A stretch of DNA of 29,817 bases from Candidatus Micrarchaeia archaeon (GCA_041500865.1 JBGQMY010000017.1:1-29817), one strand, 5' to 3'; shown: positions 3,077 through 27,003, counted from the first letter of the stretch. Translations and numbers: made by a program. The notes: generated by a model not told the origin, from the letters alone.

Positions 3077-5416
3077 ATGGCTCAGCCGTTCAGGAAGGGC
3101 AGGGTAAGCCTGGGTTCAGTCATCGTGTCCATCTTTGTGCTGCTCATAGTCCTGTTTGCAATCCTGATACTGTTGGTTGTAGCATACTATATCTTCTTTG
3201 CTGGCCCTGATATTTTCTTCGCGCCCCCCAGCGCAAGGGAAATCTCAATCTCCGGCCGCGGGCCCCTTGTGGACTCGCAAATCAATTTTTACATACTTAA
3301 CGACGATGGCACAAAGGGCGCGCTTGCAGGCAACGCAACCTCCGGAAGCGACGGGGTGTATTTCGCAACAGTCAACGCCGCGCAAGGGGACTTCCTGCTT
3401 GCAGAAGCCGCAAACGGCACCTACGCAGACGGCGTCAACAAGACAAGGCGCATGAAGCATTCAGAAGTCCTTACTGCCGCGGCATCTGCCGAAACCGATG
3501 ACATTCTAATGACAATAACGCCGCTCACGCACATGGCGGCAACAAGGGCAAGGGCGCTTGCTGCCAACAGCACCCCGCTTTCAACTGCAGTTCCTTCAGC
3601 AAACATTGGGGTCGCGCGCCAATATGGGCTTGTGGATATAATCCAGATACAGCCTATTCTTCCTGACGACGAGGACTGGCTTTCAAGCGCCGACATGGAC
3701 GAACGCAACTATGCGCTTGTGCTAGCCGGCATATCAACAGAGGCGGAAACGCTTGACGTAAGCACGGTTGGGCTTGCTGATGCGCTTGCCGATGACGCAA
3801 GCGACGGCATCCTTGACGGGAAGGACAGCGGGGAACCCATCTCAATGGACACATTATCAGACAGCTCTGCGCGGCTTGACCCAGGGGCGGGCATAGCAGG
3901 CGTGCAGAACGGCATTGCAGCAGCCCCGGTTGCGCCGAACATTAAGCCGAACCAGGCAAATTTGGCAATCCCCCTCCAGCCAGTGCCGCTTGGGATAAAC
4001 GGTGCAGGAAAGTTCTATATCACGTCGACAATGCCGCCAGCGGCATTTGCAGGGGACGTATACAACGTGCAGCTTACGGCCCAGGGCGGAACGCCGCCCT
4101 ACACCTGTTCGCTAGCTCCGAAAAACGCAGACCTGACTGTGTCCGCGCCGCCGGACTGGCTCCAGCTTGGGGCGGATTGCACGCTTAGGGGCAACGTGCC
4201 GCCATTGGTGGGCGGGAACACGATGACAATATCCCAGCCGTTCACGGTGCTGATGTGCGATTCCGCAAACGAATGCGGCGCTTTCGAGATTCGCATAACT
4301 GTCATCGGGCAAAAGCCGGAAATAGCGACGCATGAGGCAAGATGCTTCGTGAACGAGTTCTGCAACGAGAACATCGCGACTGCTGACGGCGGGCAGCCGC
4401 CGTACCACTTCAGGTCGGATTACCTCAGGGAAGGCCCGACGCCGATGGGAACGATAGTGGGCTTGAACGGGAACATCCGCGGAACCCCCACTGTCATGGG
4501 AACCTACAGCGTCGGCGTATGCGCCATAGACATGATTGGCGCATACTCGTGCGGCCACGCAACAGTCAGGGTGGTCTCGTCTAATGCAACACTGTACCTT
4601 AAGAAAACGGGAAGCGGCACAGGCAAGGTCTATGCAAACCCGTACAACAAGGACAACGTCTATGCAAACGGCGTTACGGTCACGCTTACGGCAACAGCCG
4701 ATTCCGGCTCAACGTTCATTGGATGGGGAGGCGATTGCGAAGGCGCTGCTTCCGACAAATGCACGCTCCTGATGAACGGGGACAAAAGCGTTGAGGCGCA
4801 GTTCGACAGCAACGGCTCGTCTAATGCAACACTGTACCTGAAAAAGACGGGAAGCGGCACAGGCAAGGTGTACGCAAACCCGTACAACAAGGACAACGTC
4901 TATGCCAACGGCGTTACGGTCACGCTTACGGCAACAGCCGATTCCGGCTCAACGTTCATGGGATGGGGGGGCGATTGCGAAGGCGCCAGCTCTAGCAAAT
5001 GCACGCTCCTGATGAACGGGGACAAAGACGTGGAGGCGCAGTTCGACAGCAGCGGACAGCAGCCGAGCGGCGAGATTTCTGTCAAGATAGACACGGGCAG
5101 GTGCGGAGCAGCGAACGGCGAGGTATACGGTCCTGTCGGCACCGAGCTTATGGTTTATTATGGAAGCGGGCACGGAACCGGCTACCCGGTCAGCTCTATA
5201 AATTGCGGCAAATGGACGCCTGGCCCTGACACACAGTACCAGTGCCAGCGCGGGGACAACGACCCATACGGGACCGGATGGGCCGCGCTGACTTGCCAAT
5301 CGTGCAGCTACGGCGGCTCCATTAGCGCGGTCGTCTATGCCCCATCGTCCTATGTCCTCATCTTAGGCGCCGACAACATGATGGAAGAGGCAAATGCCAA
5401 TTTCCCGTGCAGATGA
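3077..5416 (+). CDS. Large membrane-anchored surface protein with putative Ig (He_PIG-like) domains and two InlB-B/Listeria-Bacteroides-type repeats
   Basis: N-terminal RKG followed by a long hydrophobic helix. LTAQGGTPPYT and ADGGQPPYHF...IRGTPT are Ig-like motifs. GSGTGKV...VTLTATADSGSTFxGWGGDC...CTLLMNGDKxVEAQF is duplicated. Many cysteines. Confidence 0.8.
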   Translation: MAQPFRKGRVSLGSVIVSIFVLLIVLFAILILLVVAYYIFFAGPDIFFAPPSAREISISGRGPLVDSQINFYILNDDGTKGALAGNATSGSDGVYFATVNAAQGDFLLAEAANGTYADGVNKTRRMKHSEVLTAAASAETDDILMTITPLTHMAATRARALAANSTPLSTAVPSANIGVARQYGLVDIIQIQPILPDDEDWLSSADMDERNYALVLAGISTEAETLDVSTVGLADALADDASDGILDGKDSGEPISMDTLSDSSARLDPGAGIAGVQNGIAAAPVAPNIKPNQANLAIPLQPVPLGINGAGKFYITSTMPPAAFAGDVYNVQLTAQGGTPPYTCSLAPKNADLTVSAPPDWLQLGADCTLRGNVPPLVGGNTMTISQPFTVLMCDSANECGAFEIRITVIGQKPEIATHEARCFVNEFCNENIATADGGQPPYHFRSDYLREGPTPMGTIVGLNGNIRGTPTVMGTYSVGVCAIDMIGAYSCGHATVRVVSSNATLYLKKTGSGTGKVYANPYNKDNVYANGVTVTLTATADSGSTFIGWGGDCEGAASDKCTLLMNGDKSVEAQFDSNGSSNATLYLKKTGSGTGKVYANPYNKDNVYANGVTVTLTATADSGSTFMGWGGDCEGASSSKCTLLMNGDKDVEAQFDSSGQQPSGEISVKIDTGRCGAANGEVYGPVGTELMVYYGSGHGTGYPVSSINCGKWTPGPDTQYQCQRGDNDPYGTGWAALTCQSCSYGGSISAVVYAPSSYVLILGADNMMEEANANFPCR
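4576..5051 (+). repeat. Tandem 240-bp in-frame domain duplication (4576-4811 and 4816-5051)
   Basis: Hand alignment gives about 18 differences in 236 bp, mostly synonymous. Confidence 0.92.
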
Positions 5417-5495
5417 CGCCTTATGGTTAGGCCGGGGCCTTGCCATTTGCCTTACGTTTATAAACCAGGCAATGCAAATGCCTATTGTGGTCAAC

Positions 5496-6362
5496 ATGGA
5501 AAAGATACACATTGCTTTTGTTATGTTAGCGCTGCTCATGTTCTCTTTCGGGTGCACGGGCCTGGCAAGCGACACCGAGAGCCTCATCGGAGGCGGAAGT
5601 ACGGTAAGCACGGGGGAGACAGGCATGCCGAGCGCGGTTGCGCCTGGCTCTTATAAGTCTGTGCCCAGCCCAACGGATCTGGCTGGCACTGTCCAGCAGG
5701 ACCAGATGGTCATAAAGACAGGCACTGCCGAGATAGATGTTCCGGAAGGCAAGATAGCCGAGAGGTACGCCGCGCTGCAGGCGATGGCAAAGCAGTACAG
5801 CGGCGACATTGAGTCTTCAAGCTATTACGAGAGTGACTCCGGGAAAACGCAGTACGTGACAGTAAGGATAGACTCCAGCAGCTTTGACACGTTCACAGGA
5901 AGGCTGTCCGAAATAGGGACGGTAAAGAGCTTCTCAAGCAACAGCGAGGACGTGACGCAGCAGTACATTGACATAAGCGCCAAGCTCCAGAACCTTATCG
6001 CGTCAAGGGACAGGCTGCTTGCGCTCTACAACACAACCGGAAACCTTAGCGACATAATAATGCTGGAAAGGGAGATAGCGGACGTGCAGTACCAGATAGA
6101 CTCAACGACGCAGCAGAAGCTGTATTACGAGAGGCAGTCCGCAAAGGCGACAGTAAGCGTAACGCTTTCCGAGCCGCTTCCTGTTGTGGACAAGACGCTC
6201 CTGGACCCGTTCTCGCAGCTTGCGAACTTCTTCATCGGAAGCCTTGCGGCAGGGGTCACGCTTGTCGTGATAGCTGCAGGATTCCTGCTTCCGCTTGCGT
6301 TTGCGCTGTTTGTGGTCTGGAAAATCGCGGCTTGGATATGGTCCAAGACGAGGAAAAGATAA
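5496..6362 (+). CDS. DUF4349-family lipoprotein / membrane protein
   Basis: ATG 5496 follows TTTATAAA. Signal with SFGC, VIKTGTAEIDV, SEDVTQQYIDISAKLQNL coiled-coil, ATVSVTLSE, and a C-terminal TM helix. Confidence 0.85.
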   Translation: MEKIHIAFVMLALLMFSFGCTGLASDTESLIGGGSTVSTGETGMPSAVAPGSYKSVPSPTDLAGTVQQDQMVIKTGTAEIDVPEGKIAERYAALQAMAKQYSGDIESSSYYESDSGKTQYVTVRIDSSSFDTFTGRLSEIGTVKSFSSNSEDVTQQYIDISAKLQNLIASRDRLLALYNTTGNLSDIIMLEREIADVQYQIDSTTQQKLYYERQSAKATVSVTLSEPLPVVDKTLLDPFSQLANFFIGSLAAGVTLVVIAAGFLLPLAFALFVVWKIAAWIWSKTRKR

Positions 6363-16526: not shown

Positions 16527-17345
16527 ATGAAAATCGCAATATTGGCAATAGCTCTTGGATTATTGCTACTTTTTGGGTGCCTGGGGCAGACGAACACTGC
16601 GGCAAACAATCAAACTGCTGGGCAGGGGCAGGCAAATACTACAGTAAATCTAACTACAGAGGTTAACCAAACAATAATATCTAAGAATTACACTCTTGAT
16701 GAATTGTTGACTGCTATACGTAATGACACCACCCTTGCAAAAAGTATTATCGAGAATGGTGCAGATGTAAATTCTAAAACTTATGAAGGTTTGACCCCGC
16801 TCATGTATGCTGCAGCGAATGGTAAAACGGATATCTGCACTTTGCTGATTGAAAAGGGTGCATATGTAAATGAAAAATTATATTATCCTGATATTCCACA
16901 ATATAAAGATGAACCAAAAGGCCAAACTGCTCTTTCTTTTGCTATAAGCAATGGACATACTGATACAGCTAGGCTATTAATTAACAAAGGTGCAGATGTA
17001 AATGCAAGACTTCTTGGAACAGGATATGATGGCAGGACGATGCTTATGGAAGCCATAGTTCAAGTTAGAGGATCAAGTTCATCAGTAGGAGTAGCTACTG
17101 ATTTAGTTAAGCTACTAATTGAAAAAGGTGCAGATGTAAATGCAAAGGACGATAAAGGTAGAACTGCATTAATGGTTATTAATAACTGGCATGCTGACAT
17201 CACTAAGTTGCTTATTAATACTGGCATGGATTTAAACGCAAGAGATACAGAGATGAATAAGACTGCTCTTGGCTGGGCAATATATCGTTTTGGAGAAGAT
17301 TCTGAAATAGTCAGCATCCTGAGGCAGGCAGGCGCCACTGAATAA
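16527..17345 (+). CDS. Ankyrin-repeat lipoprotein (AT-rich gene)
   Basis: MKIAILAIALGLLLLFGC signal; repeated GxTPLMYAA...LLIEKGADVNAK units. Confidence 0.9.
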   Translation: MKIAILAIALGLLLLFGCLGQTNTAANNQTAGQGQANTTVNLTTEVNQTIISKNYTLDELLTAIRNDTTLAKSIIENGADVNSKTYEGLTPLMYAAANGKTDICTLLIEKGAYVNEKLYYPDIPQYKDEPKGQTALSFAISNGHTDTARLLINKGADVNARLLGTGYDGRTMLMEAIVQVRGSSSSVGVATDLVKLLIEKGADVNAKDDKGRTALMVINNWHADITKLLINTGMDLNARDTEMNKTALGWAIYRFGEDSEIVSILRQAGATE

Positions 17346-17466: not shown

Positions 17467-19026
17467 ATGAACGGCATCGGCAAGGAAGCCAAAAAGGAGC
17501 TTGACGTATACAAGCACAGGAAATACATCACCCAGGCCAGGCTGGTGGACATCAGCACCGGCAAGAAAATTGTCGTCTTAAACGACAAGGAGGCCGTTGC
17601 CAACGACATATTCGAGGGCCAGAGGGTCCAGATAACGGTCAAGGGTGCGCCGCACATCGTTCTCGTCAATCTTTCAAAGAGCCTTGTCAAGGAAGGCGAA
17701 ATCGGCATATACGCCGACGTTTCGCAGAACTTCGCGATATCCGAGGGTGACATAATAGAGATAAACCACGTGCCGATGCCAAAAAGCCTTGAAACCATAA
17801 TAAAGAAGATAGGAGGCCAGCCTACGACAAAGGAGGAGACAGACTCCATAATAAGCGACCTCATGGCGAACCGTCTTTCAGAACCGGAACTTTCCGCATG
17901 GCTCACGGCATGCTCCATACGCGGGCTTAGCGACGACGAGGTTGTCTCGCTCACCGAGTCCATGGTGGCTTCAGGCGACACGCTGAAGCTCGGCAAATCC
18001 CCCATAGTGGACAAGCACTGCATAGGCGGCGTTGCCGGAAACAGGACAACGATGGTGCTGGTCCCGATAATCGCGTCAGCCGGCATCTACATACCCAAGA
18101 CGTCGTCAAGGGCCATAACGTCCCCTGCCGGAACGGCAGACACAATGGAGGTTTTTGCCCCGGTCAACATAAGCATGGACGAGATGAGGGAAATAATGAA
18201 GAAGACGTTCGGCGTCATCGTGTGGGGCGGGGGCATAAACATAGCGCCTGCCGACGACAAGATGATACAGCTGAGAAGGTCCCTAAGGATGGACCCGAAG
18301 GGCGTGCTGCTTGCAAGCATCCTTGGGAAGAAGAAGGCAGTCGGCTCCGAACACGTGCTGATAGACATACCGCTCGGCATAAACGTCAAGGTCGGTGACA
18401 TGGGGACAGCGCAGGACCTGGCAAAGGACTTCAAGACGATAGGCGCACGGCTTGGAATGAACGTGGGCGTGGTAGTCACGAACGGCTCGGAGCCGATAGG
18501 CGACGGCATGGGGCCGGTCCTCGAGGCGAAGGACGTGCTCATGGTCCTGGAAGGCAAGGGTCCCGTTGATTTGAGGGACAAGAGCCTGATGATGGCAGGC
18601 AAGATATTCGAGCTGTGCGGGAAGGTCAGCAAGGGCGAAGGCTACGACGTGGCAAAGCACTTCCTTGAGTCAGGGAAGGCGCTTTCCAAGATGAAGGAAA
18701 TCATAGAGTCGCAGGGAGGGGACCCGAACGTGAAGTCGGATTCGCTGCCTGCCGCTAAATACACGTATGTGGTTAAGGCCACCGTGGGCGGAAGGATAGA
18801 GCACATAGACAACAGGAGCGTGTCCCGCATCGCGAGGGCGACAGGGGCTCCGCAGGACAAGGCCGCAGGCCTTTACCTGCACAAGGCAAAAGGCGACACT
18901 GTCAATGAAGGCGACGTCCTGTTCGAGCTGTTTGCGGAAAGCGAGGCCAACCTGGACTTCGCGCTGAAAATGGCTGAGGAATTCAACCCCGTCATGATGG
19001 GCAAGGTGCTGATTGACGAGTTTTAG
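17467..19026 (+). CDS. deoA: AMP phosphorylase (thymidine phosphorylase family; pentose bisphosphate pathway)
   Basis: DKHCIGGVAGNRTT, PKTSSRAITSPAGTADTME, WGG..IAPADD and GAPQDKAAG, plus the archaeal N-terminal extra domain. Confidence 0.95.
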   Translation: MNGIGKEAKKELDVYKHRKYITQARLVDISTGKKIVVLNDKEAVANDIFEGQRVQITVKGAPHIVLVNLSKSLVKEGEIGIYADVSQNFAISEGDIIEINHVPMPKSLETIIKKIGGQPTTKEETDSIISDLMANRLSEPELSAWLTACSIRGLSDDEVVSLTESMVASGDTLKLGKSPIVDKHCIGGVAGNRTTMVLVPIIASAGIYIPKTSSRAITSPAGTADTMEVFAPVNISMDEMREIMKKTFGVIVWGGGINIAPADDKMIQLRRSLRMDPKGVLLASILGKKKAVGSEHVLIDIPLGINVKVGDMGTAQDLAKDFKTIGARLGMNVGVVVTNGSEPIGDGMGPVLEAKDVLMVLEGKGPVDLRDKSLMMAGKIFELCGKVSKGEGYDVAKHFLESGKALSKMKEIIESQGGDPNVKSDSLPAAKYTYVVKATVGGRIEHIDNRSVSRIARATGAPQDKAAGLYLHKAKGDTVNEGDVLFELFAESEANLDFALKMAEEFNPVMMGKVLIDEF

Positions 19027-19027
19027 G
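18999..19027 (+). repeat. Left 29-bp direct repeat (3' end of the AMP phosphorylase gene)
   Basis: GGGCAAGGTGCTGATTGACGAGTTTTAGG; 28/29 identical to 23695-23723. Confidence 0.93.
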
Positions 19028-19100
19028 GTTTTCATTTATTTTTTAAAAAAACCACGATGCCACAATCACATATAAAAATAGCTGGCTGCCATTCAAATGC

Positions 19101-20096
19101 ATGGGCGTAATTTCCCTTTTTGGCGCGTCTGCATGGAAGAAATGCAGGATAGTCCTTCCTGAGGCGGAAGACGGGCGCATCCTGGAGGCGGCTGCAGCGG
19201 CAATGAAAAAAGGGTTCGCGGCGCCGGTCCTGCTTGGAAACAGGAAAAAAATAGAGGCAAAGGCCAGGGAGCTTGGCATCCAGATTGCTGGCATTGAGAT
19301 AATGGACACCTCCAAGGGCGTTCCGCGGGAATACGTAAACGCATATGCAAGGATAAGGCACGTGCCGCCGAAGCTTGCGGAGCGCATCCTCTCGCAGCCT
19401 ATCTTCCTGGCGGCGCTGCTTGTCAAAGAGGGGAAATGCGATGCCATGATGGGGGGCGCAGTCTACACTTCTGCTGACGTGATAACGGCTTCCGAGGGCA
19501 TCATAGGGCTGAGAAAGGGCGTTTCAGTGCCGTCCAGCTTCTTCATAATGGAAATTCCAGGATACAAAAGCGCGGAAAACGGCATTGTCCTTTTTGCGGA
19601 TTCGTCAGTCAACATAAACCCTACCGCCGAACAGCTTGCGGACATAGCGATAACAACGGCCGGCACGGCAAAGGAGCTCATGGGCTGGGTCCCAAGGGTG
19701 GCGATGCTTTCGTTCTCGACAAAAGGGAGCGCCATCCACCCGCTTGCCGACAAGGTCATCAATGCAACCAAAATCGCAAACAGGAAGGCAAAGGCGTTTC
19801 ATATAGACGGCGAAATGCAGGGCGACTCTGCGCTTGTGATGGACACCGCAATGAAAAAGATGAAGGGCAATGTCGGCGATGTCGCGGGCAGGGCAAATGT
19901 CCTGATATTCCCGGACTTGGACGCAGGCAACATCTCATACAAGCTGGTGCAGGCGTTCGCAAAGGCGAACGCATACGGCCCTATATTACAGGGCTTCCAA
20001 ATGCCGGTCAGCAACCTATCTAGAGGCGCCAAGGTAGACGATATAATTGGCGCAGTCGCCATCTTGAGCACATGGGCAAAGGGGATGAGGAAATGA
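19101..20096 (+). CDS. pta: Phosphate acetyltransferase (short Pta)
   Basis: RIVLPEAEDGRIL, FADSSVNINPTAEQLADIA, VAMLSFSTKGS, IDGEMQGDSAL, FPDLDAGNISYK, GPILQG and LSRG. Confidence 0.95.
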   Translation: MGVISLFGASAWKKCRIVLPEAEDGRILEAAAAAMKKGFAAPVLLGNRKKIEAKARELGIQIAGIEIMDTSKGVPREYVNAYARIRHVPPKLAERILSQPIFLAALLVKEGKCDAMMGGAVYTSADVITASEGIIGLRKGVSVPSSFFIMEIPGYKSAENGIVLFADSSVNINPTAEQLADIAITTAGTAKELMGWVPRVAMLSFSTKGSAIHPLADKVINATKIANRKAKAFHIDGEMQGDSALVMDTAMKKMKGNVGDVAGRANVLIFPDLDAGNISYKLVQAFAKANAYGPILQGFQMPVSNLSRGAKVDDIIGAVAILSTWAKGMRK

Positions 20097-21283
20097 ACAA
20101 GATACTGGTTCTCAACTGCGGCAGCTCGTCCATAAAATACAGGCTTTTCGACTCCGCATTCAGGGAAATACTCAGCGGCAAAGTGGAGAGGATAGGCGAA
20201 AAGGAATCCGAGATTGTGCACAGCAAGGGCAATGCAGTTTACAGGGCAAAGGTGAAGGCCAGCAACCACAAAGAGGCGATAGCCTTGATGATAAGGATGC
20301 TCCATGACAAAAAATGGGGCGGCATACGCAAAGCCACAGAAATATCTGCCATAGGGCACCGCGCGGTCCACGGCGGGCAGATGGCTAAAACATCGCTCGT
20401 GTCAGGCGCGGCAATCGGATACCTAAAATCCTTTGAGATGCTCGCGCCGCTGCACAATCCACATAACATAGAAGGCATGAAAGAGATGAAGAAGGCCATG
20501 CCGAATGTTCCACAGGTCATGGTGTTCGACACTGCATTCCATCAGACAATGCCAAGAAAGGCATACATGTACGGGCTGCCTTACAGCTTCTTTGACAAGT
20601 ACGCTGTAAGGAGATACGGCTTCCACGGCACATCCCACAAGTACGTTTCGCTGAGGGCCGCTGAAATGCTGGGAAAGAAAAAGCCCAACCTCATAACATG
20701 CCATCTTGGCGCGGGCTCAAGCATAACCGCAATAAGTAAAGGAAAGTCCGTTGACACGAGCATGGGCATGACGCCGCTGGAAGGCGTAATGATGGGAACA
20801 AGGACAGGGGACCTGGACCCGTCCATAGTTCAATATTTGGTTAAGAAATACGGCTTTGGCTATGACGCCCTTTTTGAAATAATGAACAGCAAGAGCGGCC
20901 TGCTCGGCATATCCGGCGCCAGCAAGGACGTCAGGATAATAGAGGGAAAGGCAAGGAAGGGCAATGAGAGGTGCAGGCTTGCGCTTGAGATGTTCGCGTA
21001 TAGGGTCTCAAAATACATCGGCGCATATGCCGCTGCCCTGGGCAAGGTTGACGCAGTGGTGTTCACGGCCGGCATCGGCGGGAATTCACCGGACATGAGG
21101 AAGAGGATATGCGCCAGCCTCGGCATAATCGGGGCAAGGCTTGACCCAGGGAAGAACGCCAAGGCCATAGGCAAAGAGATGGACATAAGCGCAAGGGGCT
21201 CAAAGGCCAGGATACTCGTGATACCGACAGATGAGGAGCTGATGATGGCAAAGGAGGCCGCAGCGGCAATTAGGGGATTATGA
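20093..21283 (+). CDS. ackA: Acetate kinase
   Basis: ILVLNCGSSSIKY, GHRAVHGG, APLHNP, FDTAFHQT, RRYGFHGTSH, HLGAGSS, DTSMGMTPLEG, FTAGIG and IPTDEE; ATGA overlap with pta. Confidence 0.97.
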   Translation: MNKILVLNCGSSSIKYRLFDSAFREILSGKVERIGEKESEIVHSKGNAVYRAKVKASNHKEAIALMIRMLHDKKWGGIRKATEISAIGHRAVHGGQMAKTSLVSGAAIGYLKSFEMLAPLHNPHNIEGMKEMKKAMPNVPQVMVFDTAFHQTMPRKAYMYGLPYSFFDKYAVRRYGFHGTSHKYVSLRAAEMLGKKKPNLITCHLGAGSSITAISKGKSVDTSMGMTPLEGVMMGTRTGDLDPSIVQYLVKKYGFGYDALFEIMNSKSGLLGISGASKDVRIIEGKARKGNERCRLALEMFAYRVSKYIGAYAAALGKVDAVVFTAGIGGNSPDMRKRICASLGIIGARLDPGKNAKAIGKEMDISARGSKARILVIPTDEELMMAKEAAAAIRGL

Positions 21284-21657
21284 TGGGAATAGAGGGCATC
21301 GGCGTGGACATCGTGGACGTAAAGAAGCTCAAAAAAATCCTAAAGGGCAAAGCCGGAAGTAAGTTCATTTCAAACACCTTCACCAAGCGCGAGATTGAGT
21401 GCGCGAAAGGCGGGCTGAACATATACAAGCTTGCAACATCGTTCGCGGCAAAGGAGGCAGTTTTCAAGGCGCTCGGCACCGGGTGGATTGAGGGAAAGGA
21501 CGTTGAGGTTGTGAGAAGCAGGGAAGAAGGCACGCCCTCGGTAGCGCTTCACGGAAGGATAAGGAAAATAGCTAAGAAAATGAAGATAAAAAAGGTTCTG
21601 GTGAGCCTGTCATACACTGACGAATGCGCCGTTGCCGCAGCTATAATCCTTTCCTAG
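21280..21657 (+). CDS. acpS: Holo-ACP synthase (AcpS-type 4'-phosphopantetheinyl transferase)
   Basis: GIGVDIV, FTKRE, FAAKEAVFKALGTG and VSLSY motifs. Confidence 0.93.
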   Translation: MMGIEGIGVDIVDVKKLKKILKGKAGSKFISNTFTKREIECAKGGLNIYKLATSFAAKEAVFKALGTGWIEGKDVEVVRSREEGTPSVALHGRIRKIAKKMKIKKVLVSLSYTDECAVAAAIILS

Positions 21658-21905
21658 GCCTTCTTCTTCATTTTGCCGTACATGTAGTCAACGGCCTGCC
21701 CCACTGTCTTGTTCTGCCTGACGTCCCTTTGCGGCACCCTTGTCCCGAACTCTATCTCGAGGGCCGCAAGCAGCTCCACGATGTTCATTGACTTTGCGTG
21801 CAGGTCATCCACGAAGCTGGTGGAATCCTTGAGCTTGGCCGCGCTGACGCCGAACACGTCAGCAACGACCTTCTTGACCTTCTTTTCTACTTCCTTTCTG
21901 TCCAT
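21654..21905 (-). CDS. Acyl carrier protein, atypical (KSM in place of DSL)
   Basis: 83 aa; SFVDDLHAKSMNIVELLAALEIEFG...TVGQAVDY aligns with ACP ([24 protein letters not shown]...TVQAAIDY); adjacent to acpS. Confidence 0.9.
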   Translation of the reverse strand: MDRKEVEKKVKKVVADVFGVSAAKLKDSTSFVDDLHAKSMNIVELLAALEIEFGTRVPQRDVRQNKTVGQAVDYMYGKMKKKA

Positions 21906-21906
21906 C

Positions 21907-22305
21907 CTATTCCGCCACCTTGAACACGACGATGTTCATGCCGGCTACCTTCTTGACCTTTGCCTTGACCTTCATCGGCATCTTCGCGTTCTGCGCCTCT
22001 ATCGCCTCGACGTTGGAGACGTCAAGCCCCTCTATGTTGGTGAAGAAGCACGGCCCTTCCTTGAGCTCTACGACCCCATAGGAATAGGGGTGGTATTTCG
22101 CGAACTTCATGGGCGGAAGGTTCCCGCTTGAGAATAAATGCAGCTTTCCGTCGCCGCTTATTTCTTCCCACGCCATGTCATGCGCGCTGCAGTTCTTGCA
22201 ACCGGCCTTTGGCGGGAACGTGAACTGGCCACACTTTTTGCACCTTACCCCATAGATTTTGCCCTTTGCAAGGGATGTGTAGAACTTGTTTATCATTCCT
22301 TCCAT
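21907..22305 (-). CDS. DUF35-family Zn-ribbon/OB-fold protein
   Basis: CKKCGQFTFPPKAGCKNC, GKLHLFS and PYSYGVVELKEG; GAGGTGA before ATG 22305. Confidence 0.93.
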   Translation of the reverse strand: MEGMINKFYTSLAKGKIYGVRCKKCGQFTFPPKAGCKNCSAHDMAWEEISGDGKLHLFSSGNLPPMKFAKYHPYSYGVVELKEGPCFFTNIEGLDVSNVEAIEAQNAKMPMKVKAKVKKVAGMNIVVFKVAE

Positions 22306-22310
22306 GTGTT

Positions 22311-23591
22311 TCACCTCTTAAGTACCGTAACTGCGGCATGCATGCCGTACCCGTGGTTGTGCACTACAGACACTTCAGGGATGTCCTTTATCTGCCTTCC
22401 TTTCGCCTCTCCCCTCATCTGCTTGACCGCCTCGTAAAAGTCGGATCCTGCAGAGGCGGAAAATGCGTGCCCCTTTCCATGCTTTCCACCGGATGTGTTC
22501 ATCGGCTTGTCGCCGTCGTATCTGGTCCTGCCTTCCATGACCGCCTTCCATGCCTCACCCTTGCTGAAATACCCGCATATTTCTGACTCTATCAGGTGGT
22601 ATATCTGCATGCAGTCATGCACACTCAGGTAGTCTATGTCTTTTGCAGTTATGCCCGCCATCTTCATTGCGGTTTCAAAGGCAGTCTTGTCTATTGCCCA
22701 ATCAGTCGGGTCCTTTCCGTACCATGGATAGTTGCTTGCGCTCCAGTGGAAGCCCCCAATGCCTATCGGCTCCTTTTTGCAGAACTCCTTTGCCTGGCTT
22801 TCAGAGCTGATTATGTATGCAGATGCCCCGTCAACGGTGTTGAGCACGCTCCTGGCCCTCGTCGGCCATGCCAAAAACGGGTTCTTTCTGCTTGTCCAGA
22901 ATTCCCCGTCATCCTTGAATCCTGCCTTTTTCGCATCCTGTTCGAACGTGGTCTGCACGTACGCCTTGTCGTTCTTTGACGCATGCAGTTTGATGGTCCT
23001 GTGGACTTCGCGCATCGCCTCGTCCATCTTTTCCATCTTTATGCCGTGCTTCTTCGCGTATCCCAGCGTGGGAAGCCCGCCGTATGCGGTTGCGACGTCA
23101 TACATGTGGTGGTATCCGTATGCCTGGTCCACGCCGAAATCCGTCCAGTACCATAACGTTGTCGAGTCAATCGGCTTCCTTATTGTGGGGTCATCAGTCG
23201 CTGCTGAGGACAGTATGTCACATCCTATAACCAGCACATTCCTGAATTTTCCTGATGCGACGCCCATTGCCGCAAGCCCTGCGCCGGTGTTGGTGGTCGA
23301 GCAGGCTGTCGCGAAATGGATTGCCGGCTTCAGGTGCAATCCGAGCCAGTCTGCCATCTGGGTATTGTGGGAATAAAGATGGCTGGAATGGCTGAGCATG
23401 CTGCCAAAATAGAATGCGTCAATGTCTTTCGGGTCTATCCCTGAATCGTCCATCGCCTCGAAGGCGGCCGCGCACGCGAGCTCCTGGAAGCTCAACCCCT
23501 TTATCTCAGGAGTTGCCAAAACGCTTCCGAATTTAGTGCATCCAACGCCGGTTATCACCGGTTTTTCCTTAAGGCTCCCTGCATATGCCAT
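22311..23591 (-). CDS. SCP2-type thiolase-family acyltransferase
   Basis: ITGVGCTKFG, nucleophile TAC97ST, DGASA, VHDC, NTSGG...GH and VHNHG; GAGGTG Shine-Dalgarno. Confidence 0.92.
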   Translation of the reverse strand: MAYAGSLKEKPVITGVGCTKFGSVLATPEIKGLSFQELACAAAFEAMDDSGIDPKDIDAFYFGSMLSHSSHLYSHNTQMADWLGLHLKPAIHFATACSTTNTGAGLAAMGVASGKFRNVLVIGCDILSSAATDDPTIRKPIDSTTLWYWTDFGVDQAYGYHHMYDVATAYGGLPTLGYAKKHGIKMEKMDEAMREVHRTIKLHASKNDKAYVQTTFEQDAKKAGFKDDGEFWTSRKNPFLAWPTRARSVLNTVDGASAYIISSESQAKEFCKKEPIGIGGFHWSASNYPWYGKDPTDWAIDKTAFETAMKMAGITAKDIDYLSVHDCMQIYHLIESEICGYFSKGEAWKAVMEGRTRYDGDKPMNTSGGKHGKGHAFSASAGSDFYEAVKQMRGEAKGRQIKDIPEVSVVHNHGYGMHAAVTVLKR

Positions 23592-23694
23592 ATATACACC
23601 TCATAATTTCTTATGGGATATGGCTTGCCCTGTTTTTATGTTTTTGCAATTTCCCACAAAAAGGTTCATGTTTGGCAACAGGACTGACGGAAAC

Positions 23695-23723
23695 GGGCAA
23701 GGCGCTGATTGACGAGTTTTAGG
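23695..23723 (+). repeat. Right 29-bp direct repeat (copy of the deoA 3' end)
   Basis: GGGCAAGGCGCTGATTGACGAGTTTTAGG reads GKALIDEF*, versus GKVLIDEF* in deoA. Confidence 0.93.
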
Positions 23724-26131: not shown

Positions 26132-26193
26132 CCCTTGCCTATCCTCGGCATGGTTTTTAAACGTTGATTTTTGGGCATCTCACGCCGGCGCTG

Positions 26194-26226
26194 TTTTTAA
26201 CACCTTTGCCGCACAATAAAGCCATG
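26194..26226 (+). promoter_or_regulatory. Extended promoter motif TTTTTAAC-NNCTTT-N4-CACAA-N7-ATG
   Basis: Ungapped match to 1003-1035 and 6421-6453. Confidence 0.6.
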
Positions 26227-27003
26227 GAGCAGCGGAAAAAGGCCGGCGATTCCGGAACCAAAAAAGGCATGTCCAGAGTAAGGGCGTTTCTCCACAAGTT
26301 GAAGTCAGAGGCGTCAAAAAGGCTTATCAGCAAAAAGGACAAGGAGAGGCTGAACAGCCTGCTAATCAAGGCAGCCGAGAACGGCAGGACAAAGACGGTT
26401 GAAAGGCTTCTGAAGCTTGGCGCGGATGTCAACGGAACGGACAAATTCCGCATGACTGCGCTCAATGTAGCAGCATTGAACGGGCAGACGGAAATATGCA
26501 GGCTGCTGATAGAGATGGGGGCGGACGCAAATGCGAGGAATCCCGCCAGCGTGACTCCGGTCTTGCTTGCCGCGCAGAACGGGCATATCAAAACCTGCGC
26601 CCTGTTCCTAGAAAAAGGCGCAGACGTCAACGAAATGGACAATGACGGCAGGACCGCGCTCATGTATGCAGCATGGAACGGGTATATCGAGGTCTGCGCG
26701 TTCCTGATGGCAAAAGGCGCGGACGTCAATGCAAAAGGCAGAGGAAGCGAGACTGCGCTCATGTTTGCTGCGCAGAACGAATACGCCCAAATCTGCGGTC
26801 TCCTGCTAAGGCATGGCGCGGACGTTTTTGCAAAAGACAGATTTCGCAGGACCGCGCTTGACCTGGTATGGTCTTCGTCGGCGCCCCGCGGAATGTCCTT
26901 CAAGCAAGCTGCGATACGGCATGCCCTTATTGTTGAGTATGCTAAGGTAGTAATAGGCAAGTCCGAACCGTTCCTTTCCAGCTTACGCGCGTGCATCGGC
27001 TGA
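26224..27003 (+). CDS. Ankyrin-repeat protein with basic N-terminal extension and F-x3-LRxC tail
   Basis: About five LLxxGADVN/TALMYAA repeats; ATG 26224 chosen from TATA spacing. Confidence 0.9.
   Translation: MEQRKKAGDSGTKKGMSRVRAFLHKLKSEASKRLISKKDKERLNSLLIKAAENGRTKTVERLLKLGADVNGTDKFRMTALNVAALNGQTEICRLLIEMGADANARNPASVTPVLLAAQNGHIKTCALFLEKGADVNEMDNDGRTALMYAAWNGYIEVCAFLMAKGADVNAKGRGSETALMFAAQNEYAQICGLLLRHGADVFAKDRFRRTALDLVWSSSAPRGMSFKQAAIRHALIVEYAKVVIGKSEPFLSSLRACIG

Follow-up and report, generated by a model that had tools for sequence, protein, structure and literature searches.

What does a small archaeon do with an acyl carrier protein (ACP) and a phosphopantetheinyl transferase of the AcpS type, when both are encoded side by side with a thiolase, a DUF35 protein, Pta, and AckA? 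The question is raised by a stretch of 29,817 nucleotides from Candidatus Micrarchaeia archaeon (GCA_041500865.1 JBGQMY010000017.1:1-29817), referred to here as the window, in which these six genes occupy positions 19101-23591. The passages of one preprint that deal with the matter hold ACP and AcpS to be absent from nearly all archaea (bioRxiv 10.1101/2024.07.05.601840). The sections of PMC8204110 devoted to Ack/Pta in Pace- and Woesearchaeota present them as plain acetate metabolism, and FabG/I/Z-type genes in DPANN archaea are already in print in part of PMC10936187. The scaffold role of DUF35 is also known, as the relevant parts of the literature describe it in the HMG-CoA synthase (HMGCS) complex, in the Sulfolobus fatty acid synthase (bioRxiv 10.1101/2024.07.05.601840), and in Friedel-Crafts acylases (PMC12960953). 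Among the titles and passages that our literature search covered, there is no description of the six-gene module or of a Pta acting on ACP.

Our analysis of this locus and its relatives indicates that the six genes function as a unit, a horizontally mobile module that is built around a private carrier protein and conserved across both domains. In it, ACP/AcpS and Pta/AckA form one conserved unit, common to DPANN, Asgard, the Candidate Phyla Radiation (CPR), and many anaerobic bacteria.

Six genes in two convergent operons

The earlier note on this DNA had read the six open reading frames (ORFs) as two coupled three-gene operons, and they are found as described, with pta, ackA, and acpS on the plus strand and the genes for ACP, DUF35, and thiolase on the minus strand; profile matches confirm their families (Table 1). 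The two operons converge and, as had also been noticed, overlap at their stop codons, which share a CTAG at 21654-21657. Neighboring genes of the same operon overlap by 25 nt (pta/ackA), by 4 nt (ackA/acpS), and by 4 nt (DUF35/thiolase), or are separated by a gap of 1 nt (ACP-DUF35); judging from the sequence, the module genes are translationally coupled. A putative ribosome-binding site, GAGGTG, can be read 7 nt ahead of the thiolase ATG. All six genes are single-copy in the genome, and the GC content of the cluster, 0.532 compared to 0.520 for the genome, gives no composition signal of recent transfer.

Table 1. Features of the six-gene module and of the regions upstream of its two operons, with positions counted from the first nucleotide of the window.
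Feature	Position	Strand	Evidence
Putative archaeal promoter, A/T-rich TATA-like stretches upstream of pta	19027..19100	+	sequence reading, inference
Pta-family phosphate acyltransferase, Arg133-less module-linked clade	19101..20096	+	PF01515 1.7e-99; alignment to 1qzt/6iow
Acetate/propionate-family kinase AckA	20072..21283	+	PF00871 1.2e-135; TIGR00016 459.3 vs cut-off 293.4
AcpS-type 4'-phosphopantetheinyl transferase	21280..21657	+	PF01648 8.4e-13; TIGR00556 70.9 vs 45.35
Small dedicated carrier protein (ACP), 83 aa, A-K-S39	21654..21905	-	PF00550 2.9e-9
DUF35 protein (zinc ribbon + OB fold), thiolase partner/scaffold	21907..22314	-	zf-ChsH2 PF12172 1.6e-9; OB_ChsH2_C PF01796 8.1e-10
SCP2/archaeal-type thiolase paralogue, 426 aa	22311..23591	-	Thiolase_C_1 1.4e-32
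Upstream region of thiolase operon, A-rich TATA-like stretches (putative)	23592..23723	-	sequence reading, inference

The module is flanked by unrelated genes, namely an AMP phosphorylase (17467-19026; TIGR03327, 586 bits) directly upstream of pta and a 141-aa ORF without a family. The adjacency of the AMP phosphorylase to pta is kept solely in the same-genus genome.

Conservation within the phylum

We examined an even draw of 401 genomes of the phylum, together with about 8 kb on either side of each AcpS match. AcpS homologues are present in 27 of the 401 genomes, and AckA is also present in 27 of 401. In 19 of the 26 other genomes with an AcpS match the six genes stand together, the set being complete in 16 and ended by a contig edge in 3; including the genome of the window, the adjacent set is thus found in 20 phylum genomes, or 5% of the sample. 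Given this recurrence, the six-gene arrangement is far beyond chance. The outer flanking genes are common only to the same-genus genome, and around the remaining seven weak AcpS matches the other module genes are absent. AckA without a strong AcpS match occurs in seven genomes. In six of them AckA is more divergent (36-55% identity), and within 8 kb of it the thiolase/ACP half is missing. The seventh (G063, locus L096, G063:C3 8089-8403) retains only a fragment of AckA (aa 164-218, 82% identical) directly next to a piece of the thiolase on the other strand (aa 239-288, 76% identical), as if the whole module had been deleted as a block and had left this scar.

Conservation across archaea and bacteria

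An alignment of 14 module thiolases, searched against 185,579 species genomes, gave 80 loci, in which the partner genes were re-found by tblastn and profile searches. The module is present in Woesearchaeota, in Asgard archaea, in a Hecatella metagenome-assembled genome, and, among the bacteria, in Patescibacteria/Saccharibacteria (CPR), Chloroflexi, Actinomycetes, Devosiaceae, Myxococcota, and Clostridia, with Geosporobacter ferrireducens IRF9 and Sinanaerobacter chloroacetimidivorans BAD-6 as cultured examples of the last. A distant clade, whose thiolases are 31-35% identical and whose kinase is butyrate-kinase-like, is found in Streptococcus (with the cultured S. ovis DSM 16829), Lachnospiraceae, Erysipelotrichaceae, and Coriobacteriia. 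The earlier note had asked whether the genes are conserved together elsewhere; they clearly are, both in 19 further genomes of the phylum and outside it. Its framing of the locus as an archaeal oddity was mistaken, since bacteria widely carry the module as well.

Around the 80 thiolases we found DUF35 in 78 loci (adjoining the thiolase), an ACP-like ORF in 69, Pta in 65, the kinase in 59, and AcpS in 41. When only loci with at least 4 kb on both sides are counted, the 29 of the close and middle clades have DUF35 in 29, Pta in 29, ACP in 28, AcpS in 24, and AckA in 22, and the 20 of the distant clade have DUF35 in 20, Pta in 16, ACP in 15, the kinase in 15, and AcpS in 2; four distant-clade loci with full flanks consist of thiolase and DUF35 alone.

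The order and strand of the module genes vary by lineage (L114, L119, L121, L122, L126, L134, L146). Pairwise identities correlate within sub-modules, with rho values of 0.85 for thiolase and DUF35 and 0.81 for AckA and AcpS, and the module consists of two sub-modules with partly separate histories that are still joined; in L123 and L124, AckA is 74% identical to that of the window and the thiolase merely 49%. The divergence of ACP tracks that of DUF35, thiolase, and Pta (rho 0.50-0.61) above that of AckA and AcpS (0.18-0.28), which is weak evidence.

These observations bear on the simplest account of the locus, in which the adjacency has no function and the genes arrived from bacteria once, as a block that has so far escaped being split. 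Such an account would suit a module that is patchy within the phylum and clearly mobile. However, members as far apart as 38-49% identity are still adjacent, several lineages have rearranged gene order and strand without separating the genes, the two halves have been exchanged and re-joined, and the set is found in both domains. Genes that are reshuffled and exchanged and yet stay together indicate selection on the linkage rather than mere inheritance of a block, and we regard the functionless account, which was already disfavored, as hardly credible.

One woesearchaeotal locus (L116, 3976-7676) carries two tandem thiolase-DUF35 pairs, with thiolases 48% and 62% identical to that of the window. 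The ACP gene follows the first of these pairs, and both pairs adjoin AcpS-AckA-Pta.

The module within the metabolism of its host

The host genome measures 1.04 Mb, is 92% complete, and has closest public relatives labelled Candidatus Micrarchaeota; by its small size and these relatives, the host is a small-genome DPANN archaeon. The ACP of the module is the sole PP-binding match in the genome.

Two readings of the module as part of a longer pathway were rejected. The first, type II fatty acid synthesis (FAS-II), lacks its partners: FabD was found in none of the five module-bearing genomes, and no match to a ketosynthase (ketoacyl-synt) was obtained in G211 or in the window's genome (G000), the latter being 92% complete. 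The second, the entry into the mevalonate pathway, is served from elsewhere in the genome, which encodes a canonical thiolase of 392 aa (28% identical to the module thiolase), a second DUF35 protein outside the module, and, on another contig, an archaeal HMGCS (581 bits). The genome also has PFOR. The alpha subunit of ACD is encoded in the window's genome, and the ATP-grasp beta subunit in 5 of 5 module-bearing genomes; the usual archaeal route from acetyl-CoA to ATP therefore exists without the module, and a CoA-dependent Pta/AckA pair would be redundant. Since there is no FAS-II, the canonical thiolase, DUF35, and HMGCS are separate, and ACD is complete, the module is an add-on to the existing pathways of the genome.

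CoaB was not found in four of the five module-bearing genomes, with one sub-threshold match, and the archaeal dephospho-CoA kinase (DUF359) is present in four of the five. Taken together, these two results suggest that CoA is obtained by salvaging a late precursor and is not made de novo.

A proposed reaction on the carrier protein

We propose as the likeliest reading, with about equal weight for and against, that the module carries out a thiolase-type C-C reaction on its dedicated ACP, from which the acetyl group would then be passed to phosphate and ATP. The ACP, which is of the A-K-S type, would receive phosphopantetheine on Ser39 from AcpS. With DUF35 holding it, the thiolase would catalyze a Claisen-type C-C cleavage (or condensation) in which the two-carbon (C2) unit ends as acetyl-S-ACP. 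In a step that PlsX performs with long acyl chains, the Arg133-less Pta would exchange acetyl between phosphate and the thiol of ACP, and AckA would convert acetyl-phosphate and ADP to acetate and ATP. DUF35 may dock Pta to the thiolase, with the ACP arm swinging between both active sites.

In alignments with their relatives, the thiolase, Pta, and AckA have their catalytic residues intact. In the thiolase, Cys97, His325-Asp-Cys327, Asn365, and His375 are kept in 14 of 14 sequences. Its nearest solved relatives, 7yvy, 6esq/6et9 (8.2e-25 for 6esq), BbsB (7pxp), and PhlC (5m3k, 1.5e-21), are DUF35-partnered and CoA-dependent, and residues 137-224, approximately, of the module thiolase are unaligned to the best solved match. 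Aligned to 1tuu, AckA shows conserved counterparts of M. thermophila AckA Arg91, Val93, Leu122, Phe179, His180, and Pro232. Val93, Leu122, Phe179, and Pro232 are residues that we take to form the acetate pocket, and their conservation points to an acyl unit of C2. The phosphorylation of acetoacetate by AckA, considered as an entry route, was set aside on account of this small pocket.

AcpS is an ACPS domain of about 120 aa that scores 59.7 against the equivalog TIGR00516, whose cut-off is 59.8. Ser39 of ACP is invariant in 27 of 27 sequences, in an A-K/R-S motif that replaces D-S-L; the window protein has A-K-S-M and a pI of 9.56, and the ACP is basic in most Micrarchaeota. The window ACP scores below the cut-offs of both curated FAS-II ACP models with which it was compared (NF002148, 70.1 vs 71; TIGR00517, 63.9 vs 70.45).

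A Pta lineage without Arg133

PF01515 covers the window Pta over residues 13-321; a structure model, with a pLDDT of 93.5, confirms the fold, and the solved Ptas 1qzt and 6iow match it at 1e-66. The catalytic LSRG...D residues (Ser309, Arg310, and Asp316 in MtPta numbering) are kept in it and in all linked Ptas of the close clade. What distinguishes it is the position of MtPta Arg133, which is occupied by Thr129; Arg87 is kept. In the account of MtPta given in part by PMC6461089, Ser309 and Arg310 affect kcat, and mutation of Arg87 and Arg133, at CoA site 2, affects mainly Km. Arg133 is missing in 16 of 16 full-length homologues of the phylum, 7 of which also lack Arg87, and Arg or Lys at this position is absent from all 51 module-linked Ptas of both domains. 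The housekeeping Pta paralogues of Streptococcus ovis and Collinsella retain 'RPALQ', and an unlinked DPANN Pta has 'KPALQ'. Among the 150 nearest Pta representatives drawn from 1.8 billion proteins, 91 have Arg or Lys and 59 do not, the Arg-less ones being concentrated at the top of the ranking. In a FastTree phylogeny of 202 Pta sequences, every linked Pta falls in one clade (support 0.88; 88 tips, 85 of them Arg-less), and the three housekeeping Ptas lie outside it.

The window Pta has no match to the PlsX family PF02504 at E <= 0.01; one homologue (L146) has a weak match to it (5.8e-8).

In Collinsella (L183), a third Pta-like gene (G405:C1:1247874-1248839), which is Arg133-less, lies about 7 kb from the module Pta, besides the housekeeping Pta.

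The earlier note had proposed that both Pta and the thiolase act on ACP, and this claim has fared unevenly. The Arg133-less clade, the lack of FAS-II partners, and the redundancy with ACD fit it, and several results weigh against it. Two genomes that are 97-98% complete (G007, locus L093, and G052, locus L092) carry a shortened, 307-aa Pta of the Arg-less clade beside AckA, with no AcpS match, no module thiolase genome-wide, and no ACP match within 8 kb, so that such a Pta can evidently work without a carrier; these pairs could be remnant half-modules or CoA-using derivatives. In Geosporobacter and Sinanaerobacter, the module Pta is the one full-length Pta, accompanied only by Ptb-like genes, and it may be the enzyme that these bacteria use on CoA in the ordinary way. 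Absence of the arginine is not confined to the clade, with 28 of 57 Arg-less representatives falling outside it, and the relevant part of PMC6461089 does not regard the Arg87/Arg133 'site 2' of MtPta as the catalytic site. AcpS lies inside the locus in just 2 of the 20 well-flanked distant-clade loci, and nothing in the module makes 3-oxoacyl-ACP. No fusion of ACP to a module enzyme was found either, the single match being an unrelated Streptomyces TPR protein, although such a blank is weak evidence.

Some of these results would be explained directly if Pta and AckA were an ordinary CoA-dependent acetate switch, tied to the thiolase through acetyl-CoA, while the ACP, armed by AcpS, served the thiolase alone, for instance as acceptor of the other fragment. 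Besides the carrier-less pairs of G007 and G052 and the two Clostridia, such a switch would agree with the plain acetate metabolism that Castelle et al. 2021 (PMC8204110) describe, in the sections concerned, for Pace- and Woesearchaeota, and with the acetyl-CoA that PFOR supplies in this genome. The window Pta also lies above the cut-off of the NCBIfam phosphotransacetylase subfamily (NF007233, 313.4 vs 310), with all catalytic residues kept; it is below that of the equivalog TIGR00651 (290.1 vs 311.2). On the other hand, ACD already covers the step from acetyl-CoA to ATP in the module bearers checked (5 of 5), S. ovis and Collinsella have, in addition to the Arg-less Pta of the module, a housekeeping one in which Arg133 is retained, and the Pta clade travels with ACP and thiolase across domains despite shuffling of the gene order and exchange of the two halves, for which a shared metabolite alone is insufficient. 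We consider an ordinary CoA switch, the main rival of our proposal, rather unlikely.

Neighboring genes and the direction of the reaction

Pfam annotation of 114 ORFs neighboring the module in 12 diverse loci revealed no recurrent reductase, dehydratase, ketosynthase, HMGCS, CoA-transferase, or thioesterase. The window's module itself contains no HMG-CoA synthase, ketosynthase, reductase, or dehydratase either. There is also no conserved partner gene in these 12 loci that would name the substrate; only AraC-type regulators recur, in 4 of them, standing divergent and upstream of the module in three Clostridia and one Devosiaceae. In S. ovis, a PucR regulator and a flavoprotein are found upstream of the module.

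The absence of such partners matters for the direction in which the proposed carrier-bound reaction would run. Condensation by thiolases is thermodynamically uphill. An anabolic module, in which AckA and Pta activate acetate to acetyl-ACP and the thiolase with DUF35 forms acetoacetyl-ACP to prime a lipid, a polyketide-like compound, or a mevalonate precursor, would therefore need a pulling enzyme, and none is conserved beside the module in the 12 loci; neither is a thioesterase or other release enzyme, and the genome lacks FAS-II and is already provided with a canonical thiolase, DUF35, and HMGCS. The thiolase does hold the full Cys-His-Cys set needed for condensation, and the FakAB/PlsX system offers an analogy in which an acyl-phosphate loads ACP. 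Biosynthetic roles of DUF35-thiolases are, moreover, known from the Sulfolobus fatty acid synthase and from the archaeal entry into the mevalonate pathway, as the pertinent passages of bioRxiv 10.1101/2024.07.05.601840 have it. On balance, an anabolic role seems quite improbable to us.

We favor the catabolic, ATP-yielding direction of the carrier-bound reaction, that is, the cleavage of some 3-oxoacyl or beta-dicarbonyl compound, because no enzyme of the module would pull an uphill condensation, and because some bacterial versions stand behind regulators of the inducible type and the sister clade has butyrate-type kinases. The specific donors named in the earlier note, beta-diketones and acetylated compounds among them, are conjectural. 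In its most developed form, which we put forward tentatively, the proposal describes a CoA-independent energy-conserving device of both domains: a beta-dicarbonyl compound would be split onto a private ACP, the acetyl-ACP would be converted to acetyl-phosphate by a Pta lineage that would no longer bind CoA, and the energy would be recovered as ATP by AckA, with the sister clade acting likewise on larger acyl groups. The thioester from which the substrate-level phosphorylation starts would then be protein-bound.

If this Pta lineage does act on acetyl-ACP, acyl-ACP:phosphate transacylases would comprise a second kind in addition to PlsX, and the module would contain a thiolase that works on a carrier protein. 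It would then also represent a new route of substrate-level phosphorylation, or of acetate activation, insulated from the CoA pool, and this would be relevant to ultra-small symbionts that appear to salvage CoA and not to make it.

Comparison with known systems

The archaeal thiolase/HMGCS/DUF35 complex (6esq/6et9) resembles the module in having a thiolase of the same broad type adjacent to a DUF35 protein, with DUF35 acting there as the scaffold between the thiolase and its partner enzyme. It works on CoA esters, however, and has no ACP, AcpS, Pta, or kinase, whereas the module has no HMGCS, either here or in the 12 diverse loci. The Pta-AckA switch, as in M. thermophila or with the Pta of P. 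gingivalis, shares with the module its families, its catalytic residues, and the coupling seen in bacterial operons. The module Pta differs from it in lacking Arg133 and partly Arg87, in standing always beside ACP and thiolase in the close clade, and in occurring alongside ACD in these archaea and, in some bacteria, alongside a housekeeping Pta.

The chemistry proposed for the module is like that of PlsX and FakAB, in which acyl-phosphate and acyl-ACP are interconverted by a relative with the Pta fold that is fed by a carboxylate kinase. Unlike that system, the module would handle C2 and not long chains, has AckA instead of Fak, has no link to PlsY/PlsC, and gives no PF02504 match. Citrate lyase and malonate decarboxylase also acetylate a private carrier thiol, at the cost of ATP, for the use of one complex, but with another prosthetic group, another carrier family, and a ligase-type activation, and without a thiolase.

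Two further systems use DUF35 in related ways. In the Friedel-Crafts acyltransferases PhlABC and SmaATase (5m3k), a thiolase-like subunit and DUF35 move acetyl to and from a carbon of a small molecule; as described in the corresponding part of PMC12960953, these enzymes need an HMGCS-like third subunit (PhlA-like), which is absent in and beside the module, and they have neither ACP nor coupling to phosphate and ATP. The fatty acid synthase complex of Sulfolobus acidocaldarius is, like the module, a DUF35-mediated ketothiolase assembly, but its description in the relevant part of bioRxiv 10.1101/2024.07.05.601840 is of an ACP-independent complex with a reductase, a dehydratase, and an enoyl reductase, none of which is conserved beside the module.

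Other features of the window

In addition to the module, the window encodes fibrillarin, aIF2-alpha, exosome subunits, SBDS, prefoldin, and the AMP phosphorylase mentioned above; scans of the window for tRNAs and Rfam families found nothing. Ankyrin-repeat proteins are encoded in this DPANN archaeon at 16527-17345 of the window and at G000:C5:40985-41539, and the former opens with a lipoprotein-like signal sequence, MKIAILAIALGLLLLFGC. Two antiparallel ORFs of 279 aa each occupy the same DNA, at 26157-26996 on the minus strand and 26164-27003 on the plus strand; the minus-strand ORF is without a Pfam match. Finally, at 3077-6362, a gene for a DUF4349 protein comes after one for a 779-aa protein whose InlB B-repeats (Flg_new_2) are divergent, and this locus probably serves a surface or adhesion function.

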